From: a phage
DNA: 64,000 bases
NCBI GenBank assembly: GCA_025812035.1
Contig: GCA_025812035.1_4719.1
Reading direction: 5' to 3' (one strand)
Shown here: positions 17,316 through 38,395 of the stretch, in pieces
Numbering within the stretch: the first letter of the stretch is position 1
Layout of the letters: each line of letters opens with the position of its first letter
Position numbers and translations under genes: made by a program
The notes under the pieces: model-generated
What the model saw: the letters and a program-made list of their open reading frames with translations, nothing else
What the model was told of the DNA's origin: nothing
The model's database searches: none

Positions 17316-17684
17316 TTAACCTCTACCGTCAAGCCATAAGTTGTACTTATCCCGAACGTATGGCTCACGATAAATACGTCGATAGACTTGATGTGGTATA
17401 AACTTGCAATGTACGAGTTCGTCGCTTAATTTCTGACGTCGTTCCATACCGTTGTGTATACGGCGTATCTCCCGGATATTAAAGGTTGTTTTATTCAAGA
17501 GAATAGACATAATGGCAGATCGATGATCTAGATCAAAGATTGACATCAGGCTTCGTATCTCACGTAAAACAACTTCTCTATCGACAAGGATGCGGTTATT
17601 GAACTTAAGATTCTCGGCGATACCCATAACCTTCACCTTCGACACGTCGACATGCCGGTAAAAATAAACACCAGCTTGTTGCAC
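17316..17684 (-). CDS. hypothetical protein
   Basis: 122-codon ORF; N-terminus overlaps the upstream gene, so the true start may be internal. Confidence 0.3.
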   Translation of the reverse strand: MQQAGVYFYRHVDVSKVKVMGIAENLKFNNRILVDREVVLREIRSLMSIFDLDHRSAIMSILLNKTTFNIREIRRIHNGMERRQKLSDELVHCKFIPHQVYRRIYREPYVRDKYNLWLDGRG

Positions 17685-17976
17685 TGAGGATCGTCATTGC
17701 GATGATATCTGCGACATCACTTAGTCGAGCACCAGCTTGCCACATGACGAGTATAAAAAGAACGTATGCGAATCCATACCAGACAAACCGTTTGATGTTA
17801 CGTGTCGACCAAGTACAAATATACAAAAGGGGAAGTTGTCCTATAACACTAACGATGTTTCGGATAACATAATAGGCGCGTTCCGTCGTTGCCTCGAAAT
17901 CGATGTTCGTTGCAGAAATCCCAATCAATATAAAAGTGATAAAGCAATAGATTTTTGCGTACGTTTTTAAACTCAT
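17605..17976 (-). CDS. hypothetical membrane protein (holin-like candidate)
   Basis: 123 codons with several hydrophobic helices; near the cell wall hydrolase gene. Confidence 0.4.
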   Translation of the reverse strand: MSLKTYAKIYCFITFILIGISATNIDFEATTERAYYVIRNIVSVIGQLPLLYICTWSTRNIKRFVWYGFAYVLFILVMWQAGARLSDVADIIAMTILSATSWCLFLPACRRVEGEGYGYRRES

Positions 17977-17991
17977 AACTTTTCCCGTTCG

Positions 17992-18225
17992 TTATTTGCG
18001 TTTCCCTATACTCCTCAACAATGTGACGATAACGAATACCGCTGTCATCAAGAAGAGGAACCATAACCCTACGTTAATTCGGGCGGCGGGTTCATCTACC
18101 ATGAAGAACATCGTTCCACAAAACCCAATAACCATCCAGGTTAAGACCATCCCTGTTAATCCCCGTAGTAGCATATGCCCCATCATGAACTCCTTCTTAC
18201 TTTTTCTGATAAAGCGACGATTCAA
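17992..18225 (-). CDS. small membrane protein
   Basis: 77 codons, two hydrophobic helices. Confidence 0.4.
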   Translation of the reverse strand: MNRRFIRKSKKEFMMGHMLLRGLTGMVLTWMVIGFCGTMFFMVDEPAARINVGLWFLFLMTAVFVIVTLLRSIGKRK

Positions 18226-18359
18226 GTTTTAGAAACATCGCTAACGCGAATGCGATTATTATCGCACGTATCCACATACCTCCTTGACAACTGTTGTACA
18301 ACATAAAGACCAGAGCGATGCCGCCCATATGCAGGCGGCACTTATCGAACAGTGTGGGT

Positions 18360-18587
18360 TTATACATAGGAAATTAATCGTTGAATGATTTTTACTTTGC
18401 CTTTACCTGGGCCTTTCTTGCGACGATTCAACAGACGGATACGGTTTCCAATTACGGAATCGCCATCATAATCAGCACGTAACTGTGGTGGGAGAGCAAG
18501 ATGTTCGCGATTGACACCCGGGTTGTTATAAAAACGATTGAAACTTAAAAGATGGTTAGTTGGAATCATTGTATTGTCCTTATTCAA
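18360..18587 (-). CDS. small basic protein with KKGPGKGK motif
   Basis: 75 codons; ...NRIRLLNRRKKGPGKGKVK...; motif shared with ORFs at 36428-36631 and 36854-37000. Confidence 0.4.
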   Translation of the reverse strand: MNKDNTMIPTNHLLSFNRFYNNPGVNREHLALPPQLRADYDGDSVIGNRIRLLNRRKKGPGKGKVKIIQRLISYV

Positions 18588-18944
18588 TTATTTACCCAGA
18601 TAGAGATATTCAGCGCCCTGAACAACGCCGGTTGTTGGATCAACCAGTACGCGAACCCGTGCGTAGGTCTTGAAAGAGGGATTGAAAACTTCGAAGTCAG
18701 CCACTTTCAATTTCACGCTAGGGTTGATAGGGTTCTTAACACCCGGAAGTTCTTTCGGTAACCCGAAATCGACTCCATCTTCTTCAAGGTCTGCTGGCGT
18801 CATGTTCTCCATGGCCATGTAGACCGCTTTTGCTTTATCGTAAACTTCTGGGCTATCCAGCAACCCAGCCTGTGCTGAACCGACAACACCACCGAACAGA
18901 ATAGCAACAGCAACAAACAATTTCGCTAACGTTTTCATGATCAT
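18588..18944 (-). CDS. secreted hypothetical protein
   Basis: signal-peptide-like N-terminus MIMKTLAKLFVAVAILFGGVVGSAQA. Confidence 0.5.
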   Translation of the reverse strand: MIMKTLAKLFVAVAILFGGVVGSAQAGLLDSPEVYDKAKAVYMAMENMTPADLEEDGVDFGLPKELPGVKNPINPSVKLKVADFEVFNPSFKTYARVRVLVDPTTGVVQGAEYLYLGK

Positions 18945-18973
18945 CTCCTTAAGAGTAAATGGTACAATACTTA

Positions 18974-19396
18974 TTAACGTACGGCAGCAACGCTACCAGC
19001 ACATGCCTGAATATCATCTGTATTTACGATGATGGTTTCGTTAAACGCACGAATACGTGCACGACGTGCTTCTTTAAGGCTAGCAATTGCGTTAGCAGCT
19101 TGATCTGTATTCGCAAGGCTAATAACCGGGATCAAACGCATATCGGGACTGCAGATATTCAATGCTTGGTACACACGTCCGTTAATTCCTACGGTATCAG
19201 ACATCGGATAGTGCGCACGACATTGAAATTGACCCATGACAACAAGCGAACGATCTGAGATACCAATCTGATAACGACCATCTTCACTGTAGGCGTAGCA
19301 GTTTTGACCACGAGCCATCCAGTTAGCTTGTGCTTGTGTGCTAACAAAAGCCAGGGTGGTGACGATAGCAAATACGATATTTTTGAACAGTTTCAT
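18974..19396 (-). CDS. secreted hypothetical protein
   Basis: signal-peptide-like N-terminus MKLFKNIVFAIVTTLAFVSTQAQA. Confidence 0.5.
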   Translation of the reverse strand: MKLFKNIVFAIVTTLAFVSTQAQANWMARGQNCYAYSEDGRYQIGISDRSLVVMGQFQCRAHYPMSDTVGINGRVYQALNICSPDMRLIPVISLANTDQAANAIASLKEARRARIRAFNETIIVNTDDIQACAGSVAAVR

Positions 19397-36099: not shown

Positions 36100-36446
36100 T
36101 CCACATTCTCCGTTATATGCTTTAAACTGTTACGTATACTTCTCAATCGATGGTTAAATCCGGAACGATAACATTTCCGTTCAAACCGTGCCGCTCGCGA
36201 TTTATTCGCCTGATGAAGCTGTTCGTTCACCTGCGACGCTATACGTAAACGCTCTAATAAAGACCTCAGCCGAACGACAACCAACGGCTGTTCTTTCACC
36301 TTCTCTAGTTTGAGTAAATTGTCAACACGAAACTTTATTTCGATAATCTGATTCCTGTTTTTGCGGTACTGATGAATATACCAACATCGACGAAAATAGG
36401 CGATGCTAAACATAGGGTAGGTCCTTTTCAACGCCACCTCCAACAA
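36096..36446 (-). CDS. hypothetical protein
   Basis: 116-codon ORF, basic. Confidence 0.4.
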   Translation of the reverse strand: MLEVALKRTYPMFSIAYFRRCWYIHQYRKNRNQIIEIKFRVDNLLKLEKVKEQPLVVVRLRSLLERLRIASQVNEQLHQANKSRAARFERKCYRSGFNHRLRSIRNSLKHITENVE

Positions 36447-36631
36447 TAAAACGGATTAGGTGCTTTATGGTATTTATAAATACCCACTTTCTTCCGTCTG
36501 CCTTTACCCGGTCCTCGTTTAATACGTTTGTTATAAACACGACCCAAATATCGAGTGACGATAGATCGGGATAAATACATCGGATCGATATAATCCAGAG
36601 TACCCGCTTCTGTTTCTTCGAGACATTGCAT
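36428..36631 (-). CDS. small basic protein with KRGPGKGRRKK motif
   Basis: 67 codons; shares the basic Gly-Pro-Gly-Lys-Gly motif with ORFs at 18360-18587 and 36854-37000. Confidence 0.35.
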   Translation of the reverse strand: MQCLEETEAGTLDYIDPMYLSRSIVTRYLGRVYNKRIKRGPGKGRRKKVGIYKYHKAPNPFYCWRWR

Positions 36632-36657: not shown

Positions 36658-36864
36658 TCAATCCAGCATAAGCCATGGCATCGCTTTCGCGATAGAATCC
36701 ACCGCAGCATTTGCTATCCTTCGTTCAGTCATTGGCACCACGTGCGCAACGAACCGTTTCCCTTTATTGCAACCTTTCTTGTGTTTTCCTTTGACTAAAC
36801 GAACACCGATCATGTCGTTGATAACATGATTTAGTATGTAGCGCTGTAGAGAATTAATCATCAC
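36658..36864 (-). CDS. hypothetical protein
   Basis: 68-codon ORF with GTG start. Confidence 0.35.
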   Translation of the reverse strand: MMINSLQRYILNHVINDMIGVRLVKGKHKKGCNKGKRFVAHVVPMTERRIANAAVDSIAKAMPWLMLD

Positions 36865-37000
36865 TTTTACTCCAGGCAGAGAAGACCCTCGGTTTTAGTT
36901 CTATCTGTCCGCATATCCAGGTGTATCTCCATTTACCTTTACGAGGACCTTTCTTATTTTTAACGCCTATCAGAATACGATAGGGATATGACCAAGTCAT
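36854..37000 (-). CDS. small basic protein (48 aa) with KKGPRKGK motif, not in the ORF track
   Basis: ATG at 37000 preceded by AAGGGGGG; encodes MTWSYPYRILIGVKNKKGPRKGKWRY... Confidence 0.3.
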   Translation of the reverse strand: MTWSYPYRILIGVKNKKGPRKGKWRYTWICGQIELKPRVFSAWSKSDD

Positions 37001-37306: not shown

Positions 37307-37344
37307 GATAACCCTCCGCGAGTTTCTCTATTTCGTTCTGTGTT

Positions 37345-37366
37345 GCGGGTGGATACACCCACCCGC
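37345..37366 (-). promoter_or_regulatory. intergenic 8-bp stem-loop (GCGGGTGG/CCACCCGC) just downstream of thyA
   Basis: perfect inverted repeat read directly; no U tract. Confidence 0.3.
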
Positions 37367-37375
37367 ATCGTTAAT

Positions 37376-38395
37376 TTACACCGCCACCTTAGCCTTGATA
37401 GCCGGATGCGATTGATATCCAACGAACACAAAGTCTTCGTAACGGTAATCCGTAATACTTTCCGGTTTACGTACGATCGTTAGCTTCGGTAATGGATACG
37501 GCTCACGACTGAGCTGCTCTTTAACCTGTTCGAAGTGGTTGTGATAGATGTGACAATCTCCACCAGTCCACACGAACTCACCGACGTCCATATTCAGCTG
37601 TTGGGCAAGCATATGCGTTAACAACGAATATGAGGCGATGTTAAAGCTCCAACCCAAGAGCGTGTCGCACGAACGCTGATAAAGCTGACAGGATAAAGCA
37701 CGTGTTGGTACGTTATGTGTGTTCAACCAAAGTTCTATTTCACTACGTCGTACATCATCCATAACCCACTGGGTTCTTAGTACGTCGTTGCGTCGGACAT
37801 AATCAACGCGTTCATCGATCGTGAGTTCGTGGGTATAGAACTGATAGAAACTGTGGCACGGGGCGAGGTGCATGTCGTCTAAATCGCCTACGTTCCACGC
37901 GCTAACGATGATCCGTCGAGAATCAGGATCTTCTTTAAGCTGACGCATCACGTTTGCAATCTGATCGTGATGTTTAACATACACGAGGTGTTTTAGCATA
38001 CCGTCGTTAAGAATACCACAATACTCGTAACCGCGTTGCATCAACTCGCGAGTACGTTCTGTATCGTGCGGAACAACCACTTTGTAGTCAATCCATTCCC
38101 GCCATTGGCTACCGTAAATCGGTCCTAGATTCCCTTCTTCGTCAGCCCACTCATTCCAAATACGAACACCGTTATCTTGAAGATAAGCAACGTTTGTATC
38201 ACCATTAAGAAACCAGAGCAGTTCGTGGATAACGCTCTTAAGGTGAATCTTCTTAGTGGTTACCAGCGGGAATCCTTTCTTCAAGTCAAAACGCATTTGA
38301 CGTCCGAATACCGAACGGGTACCAGTACCTGTGCGGTCGGCTTTATCGCGACCATTATCCATGATGTCTTGCAAAAGGTCCAAATACTGTTTCAT
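37376..38395 (-). CDS. thyA: thymidylate synthase with two large insertions
   Basis: strong collinear match to ThyA: [40 protein letters not shown], catalytic [31 protein letters not shown]; 339 aa versus ~264 for typical ThyA, owing to two inserted segments. Confidence 0.9.

Follow-up and report, generated by a model that had tools for sequence, protein, structure and literature searches.

The window analyzed here, a stretch of phage DNA 64,000 nucleotides in length, contains four small genes (A, B, C, and D) that share a short, Lys/Gly-rich peptide motif. All four are on the minus strand, gene A being solitary and genes B, C, and D arranged in tandem, and the genes and their motifs are organized as follows.

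18360–18569, minus strand: gene A, 69 aa, orthologue of Goslar gp102, pI 11.0, net charge +9
18396–18419, minus strand: motif KKGPGKGK of gene A, at the end of strand 1 and the loop (G53–K58) of a predicted β-hairpin
36428–36631, minus strand: gene B, 67 aa, orthologue of Goslar gp137, pI 10.1, net charge +11
36497–36520, minus strand: motif KRGPGKGR of gene B, with 3 synonymous and 0 non-synonymous differences from Goslar
36658–36861, minus strand: gene C, 67 aa from the ATG, orthologue of Goslar HOV27_xxxxx (YP_009820823), pI 10.5
36757–36780, minus strand: motif KKGCNKGK of gene C, whose Cys position is C, Y, or V in relatives
36854–37000, minus strand: gene D, 48 aa, orthologue of Goslar gp139, pI 10.2
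36932–36955, minus strand: motif KKGPRKGK of gene D

Both motif loci align to Escherichia phage vB_EcoM_Goslar (NC_048170, 237 kb, Goslarvirus), a nucleus-forming chimallivirus, with 91% nucleotide identity at ~17–20 kb and 86.5% at ~36–37.6 kb, and no phage record other than Goslar matches the two loci. From the sequence matches at both loci we assign the window to a Goslar-like jumbo phage. The Goslar orthologues of genes A–D are 71–98% identical at the amino acid level, have the same order and strand, and are all annotated as CDSs, but carry no functional annotation in RefSeq. Goslar, IMGVR_UViG_3300011560, and a divergent contig (L012) all preserve the reading frames, and intact orthologues of all four genes are present in each Goslar-like genome found; the gene order thyA-97aa-D-C-B-116aa is kept even in L012. 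The RefSeq orthologue of gene C (Goslar NC_048170 coordinates 130920–131123; L002 coordinates 2066–2269) is listed with HOV27_xxxxx as a placeholder locus tag, and this annotation glitch has been passed on into a published RNA-seq table. A literature search found no mention of the accession numbers or locus tags of the Goslar orthologues, or of the shared motif.

The sequence-only reading of this DNA had reported three small basic ORFs with a common motif, and all three are found where it placed them, together with their motifs, on the minus strand. The count was one short, however, as gene C, with its motif KKGCNKGK, lies between the two clustered members and was overlooked. The 48-aa ORF described as untracked does exist but has an annotated Goslar orthologue (gp139), and the ORF delimited as 18360–18587 is likewise genuine but probably begins further downstream, position 18587 being a TTG that simply marks the limit of the maximal ORF. 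The ATG at 18569 is most likely the true start of gene A, given its AAGGA Shine-Dalgarno site and its agreement with the annotation of Goslar gp102. Shine-Dalgarno sites precede the starts of all four genes. Gene C has an alternative start, a GTG one codon upstream (36864), and its start is overlapped by the gene D stop (GTGATGA); overlaps of this type, also seen between gene A and the ORF downstream of it, are usual in phage operons.

The four proteins have pI values of 10.1–11.0 and net charges of +8 to +11, and none contains a hydrophobic segment or a signal peptide. The N-terminal half of protein A is variable, is predicted to be disordered, and contains nearly all of the amino acid change relative to Goslar; it is followed by a conserved C-terminal module (ADYDGDxVIGNxIRLLNRRKKGPGKGKVKIIQRLISYV). 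The ADYDG segment in this module (the region of residues 32–37; 18465–18482, minus strand) is invariant in 21/21 aligned A homologues, and the final Asp of ADYDGD is nearly so, being Glu or Asn in three of the 21. This D-x-D-G-D pattern is reminiscent of loops that bind metal in RNA polymerases and in Ca-binding proteins. Protein B has an acidic N-terminus followed by ...RVYNKRIKRGPGKGRRKKVGIYKYHKAPNP..., and B and D share a downstream K-x-P...[FY]..W pattern. Subfamily B tolerates substitution of the second Gly of the motif, which is replaced by Ser or Asp in homologues P0063, P0074, P0075, and P0077 (KRGPGKSR, KRGPGKDR/K). The C-terminus of protein C, AKAMPWLMLD, is invariant.

Several further features lie close to the two loci.

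17605–17976 and 17992–18225, minus strand: transmembrane proteins near gene A
18197–18367, minus strand: hydrophobic ORF of 56 aa (MYKPTLFDKCRLHMGGIALVFMLYNS...), beginning inside the gene A stop (ATGTATAA)
18320–18339: perfect GC-rich inverted repeat, GCCGCC-N8-GGCGGC, just downstream of gene A and inside the 56-aa ORF
18588–18944 and 18974–19396, minus strand: signal-peptide proteins near gene A
37344–37367: GC-rich stem-loop with a 9-bp stem and no T-run, immediately 3′ of the thymidylate synthase gene
37376–38395, minus strand: thymidylate synthase, 339 aa

Gene A belongs to a run of small genes (17316–19396, minus strand) downstream of the orthologue of the Goslar gp98 endolysin, and the make-up of this run suggests an envelope-related cassette, albeit one with early-type transcription. 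The 56-aa ORF is intact and ~93% conserved in Goslar and IMGVR_UViG_3300011560, corresponds to an unannotated gap between gp101 and gp102 in the Goslar RefSeq entry, and is probably a small membrane-protein gene that has been missed. The inverted repeat is 100% conserved in the three genomes compared, and could form a terminator-like or RNA-stability hairpin. At the other locus, the stem-loop is conserved in Goslar-like genomes, with a compensatory change (T:A to C:G) in L012, and the phage RNA polymerases may use it as a signal for transcript ends or for processing. Scans for promoters and terminators show no enrichment over shuffled sequences at either locus. The thymidylate synthase is longer than Escherichia coli ThyA (~264 aa), which points to an insertion or an extension.

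In a six-frame scan of the window, the strict motif [KR][KR]GPx[KR]G[KR] has three matches (genes A, B, and D), and a fourth, in gene C, is recovered once the Pro position is left free. All four are in the coding frame of small minus-strand genes that are annotated in Goslar. Over 300 second-order Markov simulations the strict motif is expected 0.003 times per window and the loose one 0.07 times, and the three and four matches observed exclude a chance origin of the motif. These four genes are also the only matches to the motif, and to a 31-column HMM of the core, in the complete 237-kb genome of Goslar. At the DNA level, the approximate core that the sequence-only reading had noted is indeed shared, and takes the exact form CCTTTACNNGGNCC, which occurs 3 times where shuffles predict 0.01.

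The excess of this core could be taken to mean that what is conserved is a stretch of nucleotides (a protein-binding site or RNA motif, for example) that happens to be translated, and the sequence-only reading had raised a repeated nucleotide motif read through in frame as its alternative to a protein family. We consider this very improbable. The codons for G-P-x-K-G impose the core except for one shared base, the middle G of the x codon (GGT/GGT/CGT). A codon table comparing the window, Goslar, IMGVR_UViG_3300011560, and the more divergent L012 shows that the motif residues are fixed apart from one R/K swap, whereas the codons used for them include GGA, GGC, GGG, and GGT for Gly, CCA, CCC, CCG, and CCT for Pro, AAA and AAG for Lys, and TGC and TGT for Cys; every four-fold degenerate position varies among both paralogues and orthologues. 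Since third positions vary while the amino acids do not, the DNA core just mirrors the codons: it is the footprint of G-P-x-K-G, and selection acts on the peptide. Gene C keeps the peptide motif without the DNA core, the motif is always in the coding frame and on the coding strand, and neither Rfam nor tRNA searches give a match anywhere in the window.

Substitution patterns point in the same direction. Within each subfamily the motif is the most conserved segment, and dN/dS values against Goslar (Nei-Gojobori) are 0.51 for gene A, 0.27 for B, 0.11 for C, and 0.03 for D, the last being the most constrained of the four. When the 25-aa cores are pooled and compared with Goslar there are 15 synonymous differences in 70 sites and 5 non-synonymous differences in 230 sites, so that the synonymous versus non-synonymous comparison proposed with the sequence-only reading shows constraint at the protein level. 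Frameshifted contexts in relatives, which that reading had named as contrary evidence, do not occur, the frames being intact in all relatives. Its suggestion of a small protein family is thus well founded in conserved in-frame ORFs, purifying selection, ribosome-binding sites, and the transcription in Goslar described below.

It could also be argued that low-complexity basic stretches in unrelated ORFs resemble one another by chance, or that the ORFs are spurious and non-coding, as the proteins are tiny and have no database homologues beyond one phage genus. This too is hardly credible: it is contradicted by the dN/dS values, the motif simulations, and the codon table, three of the four genes are adjacent to one another, and the ribosome-binding sites and transcription speak against spurious ORFs. 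Genes A–D are thus four protein-coding genes that are paralogous or share a module.

We define the family as basic proteins of 48–96 aa, encoded in Goslar-like genomes, with the motif [KR][KR]G[PCYV]x[KR][GSD][KRQS] between two strand-like segments; the four window genes and 104 database proteins recovered with the family profile fit this description. The latter come from a search of the family-wide profile against 5.8 billion proteins, are 41–83 aa long, and all fall within the four subfamilies. Homologue clusters number ~110 in all (41–96 aa), with 32 for A (47–96 aa, from a search with protein A) and about 78 for B, C, and D together, a joint B/C/D profile search yielding 70 clusters. The homologues are on contigs of Goslar size (233–250 kb) wherever the contig is long enough to judge, and assemblies of E. 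coli, Salmonella, Shigella, and Enterobacter are among their sources. The C profile, run with HMMER in an exhaustive search of 1.84 billion cluster representatives, retrieved only three clusters, each of them from the C family; a tblastn search of B against 50,697 phage records identified Goslar alone, and IMG/VR scans found Goslar and one sister genome and nothing else. In Pfam and PHROGs the four proteins have no credible match, the only hits being ICMT at 16.6 bits (cutoff 24) and phrog_33538 at an E-value of 0.28, and PDB sequence and profile searches (A, B/D, D, core, and C) were empty or gave irrelevant hits such as LSD1 (E 1.5) and PTPRZ (E 7.3). Because all of the homologues found fall in the four subfamilies and no outside matches were seen, the family is, as judged from these searches, restricted to the Goslarvirus lineage.

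The subfamilies are not equally close to one another. A aligns with B/D over 19 columns (hhalign E 1.7e-5, probability 78%), and C aligns with the other subfamilies over just 12 columns. With leave-one-out HMMs, A, B, and D rank right after the training subfamilies and ahead of the non-family ORFs of the window, with scores that are meaningful for A (E 0.003) and of E 1.4–2.8 for B and D; C is not recovered. Membership of C is indicated mainly by the motif, by the hydrophobic/basic strands that flank it, and by the position of the gene between B and D. Six A homologues of 96 aa (P0012, P0014, P0015, P0020, P0022, and P0025) contain an internal duplication of the acidic-loop/strand module, with DRDSDSAVKEHIRLLVRRKNSDN beside DYDGDTVIGNSIRLLNRRKKGPG and without the GPGKGK turn in the first copy, showing that the module does duplicate.

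Published RNA-seq data for Goslar 30 min after infection (doi 10.1101/2023.09.20.558163) include reads for all four orthologues, with 274–322 in the control strain for gp102, 174–222 for gp137, 191–219 for HOV27_xxxxx, and 62–92 for gp139. Expressed as reads per kilobase, three of the four are within ~1.5-fold of long genes such as gp38 or the major capsid protein, and gp139 is about three-fold below them. In that study, knock-down of the nuclear-shell protein ChmA lowers late genes by 3–7 log2 units, and genes insensitive to it are read as early genes transcribed from the early infection vesicle (doi 10.1101/2023.09.20.558163). The four orthologues change by −1.0 to +1.3 log2 units, as early genes do, and are thus transcribed in Goslar with an early, nucleus-independent profile. 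A search of the Goslar virion mass-spectrometry paper and its supplementary material did not reveal any of the four, nor did a search of the supplementary material of the nucleus-interactome study, and our searches returned no proteomic or other direct sign of translation for A–D.

An AlphaFold2 model of protein A, built from a 21-sequence alignment, predicts a β-hairpin with strands at residues 44–52 and 59–67 joined by a loop at G53–K58 (GPGKGK), following a disordered N-terminal stretch of 42 residues. Mean pLDDT values in 10-residue blocks are 63–79 over residues 41–69, such that the motif is placed at the tip of the predicted hairpin with moderate confidence. The model of C is of low confidence (pLDDT 61) and has no hairpin centered on the motif, so that model support for the hairpin comes only from A.

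We compared the family with known proteins that have short basic arms or hairpins. The AT-hook and SPKK peptides, to which the sequence-only reading had alluded in likening the motif to minor-groove binders, are also short, basic, and Gly/Pro-containing. The AT-hook has an R-G-R-P core, and SPKK has an S/T-P-[KR]-[KR] core that is usually repeated. However, both occur in disordered regions, whereas the K-G-P-x-K-G of this family is at a predicted hairpin turn; the R-G-R-P core is absent and the AT-hook family (PF02178) is not matched in Pfam at E≤10, and for SPKK/S(T)PXX there is no Ser/Thr before the Pro and only a single copy of the motif per protein. KOW proteins (PF00467; L24/NusG) and Cren7/Sso7d resemble the family in size (48–69 aa), in their high Lys content, and in having a hairpin whose loop is rich in G and K, and by eye the L24 ...VLTGKDKGKRGKVKNV... 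and Cren7 ...APKGRKGVKIG... segments resemble the motif, a lead rather than evidence. Neither is supported as a relative: KOW has no Pfam match, an hhalign value of 0.56% against E. coli L24, and PDB profiles without L24 or NusG, and Cren7 has an hhalign probability of 0.15% with empty PDB profile searches. Relative to the SH3-like five-stranded barrel, the A model contains a two-stranded hairpin alone.

HU and IHF have a basic two-stranded β-arm with a Gly/Pro turn and a tip of the form ...R-N-P-x-T-G-K-x-[IV]..., and the apical Pro of this arm inserts into the DNA minor groove. The hhalign comparison pairs KGPGKGKVK with the arm-tip sequence RNPQTGKEI but at a probability of 0.09% (against E. 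coli HU-α), there is no Pfam or PDB match, and the proteins are too short for the helical body. The resemblance to β-arm DNA binders is thus to be seen as functional analogy and not as family membership. The AP2/integrase-type domain, a three-stranded sheet packed on a helix that is found in phage HNH endonucleases, is not supported, as none of the four proteins has a Pfam match at E≤10 and the PDB profiles contain neither AP2 nor the integrase N-terminal domain. The sole PDB match with E<1 for any family member is in C, where residues 33–67 (34 aa; 36658–36762, minus strand) weakly match GGxFxLRIEDTD...AMxWLGLD of two Xanthomonadales GluRS structures (5h4v, 7k86; E 0.025–0.1). HIGH and EDTD are absent from C, other GluRS structures are unmatched, the E-value fails correction for multiple searches, and the exhaustive profile search returned the C family alone; we judge this likeness to be chance.

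We propose that A–D are Goslarvirus-specific basic β-hairpin mini-proteins that bind a polyanion, most likely DNA or RNA, and give this a probability of roughly one half. The shared element would be a short basic β-hairpin whose two strands carry many hydrophobic and basic residues and are connected by the Lys/Gly-rich turn K-K-G-[P/C]-x-K-G-K, and it would serve as a polyanion-binding arm. The flanking Lys and Arg residues could contact phosphates, and the G-P/G-x-x-G turn could position its apex residue, which is Pro or (in C) Cys, Tyr, or Val, for contact with a groove. The four proteins would then have an early accessory role, with the nucleic acid of the host or the phage as their target. 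This proposal is prompted by the extreme charge around the turn, the strict conservation of its Lys and Gly residues, the turn-forming G-P/G-x-x-G, and the residue at the apex. Homology to nucleic-acid-binding families is not detectable for A–D in the Pfam, PHROGs, PDB, and HMM searches, and nucleic-acid binding appears plausible from the sequence features just listed.

Two other roles merit consideration. The motif may be a docking or targeting epitope that takes four otherwise unrelated early proteins to one partner or place, the candidates being the shell or import machinery of the phage nucleus, the early infection vesicle, and host proteins such as a chaperone, a protease, RNA polymerase, or the ribosome. 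The similarity between subfamilies is limited to the motif and a few flanking residues (the 12–19 columns aligned by hhalign), the leave-one-out HMMs barely recover an omitted subfamily, the flanks and termini are subfamily-specific and strongly conserved (e.g. AKAMPWLMLD in C and ADYDGD in A), and all four genes are transcribed in the early class; a short shared motif with distinct conserved termini is the look expected of distinct effectors with one address tag. We nonetheless think this role possible but rather unlikely, as the motif is in a predicted structured hairpin and not in a disordered tail, no partner is known, polyanion binding is a simpler account of the high positive charge, and a review of chimallivirus import describes cargo as being recognized by surface residues of the folded protein and not by a signal sequence (PMC12908238). 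Less likely again is that the proteins are membrane- or envelope-active cationic, amphipathic hairpins that bind anionic lipids or lipopolysaccharide and function in lysis timing or in membrane compartments. The setting of gene A among small signal-peptide and transmembrane proteins downstream of the endolysin gene would suit such a role, as would the overlap of its stop with the start of the conserved 56-aa hydrophobic ORF; but genes B, C, and D are elsewhere, adjoining thymidylate synthase among soluble-looking small proteins, A–D lack hydrophobic segments and signal peptides, and early-class transcription is ill-suited to lysis.

A bolder idea, and decidedly a long shot, is that nucleus-forming phages use the K-K-G-P-x-K-G-K hairpin as an address or adaptor module that can be transplanted, a linear-like epitope that delivers several unrelated early mini-effectors to one destination, which may be the early infection vesicle, a single host machine, or the phage nucleus with its import machinery. 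Chimallivirus import is currently thought to rely on folded surface patches alone, and if true this would be the first sequence-recognizable targeting signal in the chimalliviruses.

As an ORFan paralogue family of a well-studied model phage, A–D are not surprising in kind. The direct gain is in annotation: four Goslar-like 'hypothetical proteins' are grouped here into one family with a defined conserved module, and the relationship of gene C is added. If the hairpin does not prove to be a shared targeting or nucleic-acid-binding module, the family is one more lineage-restricted orphan (ORFan) family; if it does, it would be a useful minimal tag. Goslar is a leading model of nucleus formation by phages in E. 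coli, and hardly any of its early accessory genes have been characterized. Four early, highly basic mini-proteins, available as synthesizable peptides, are a cheap and tractable target among these genes, and the family could help in finding host-takeover or nucleic-acid-handling factors.
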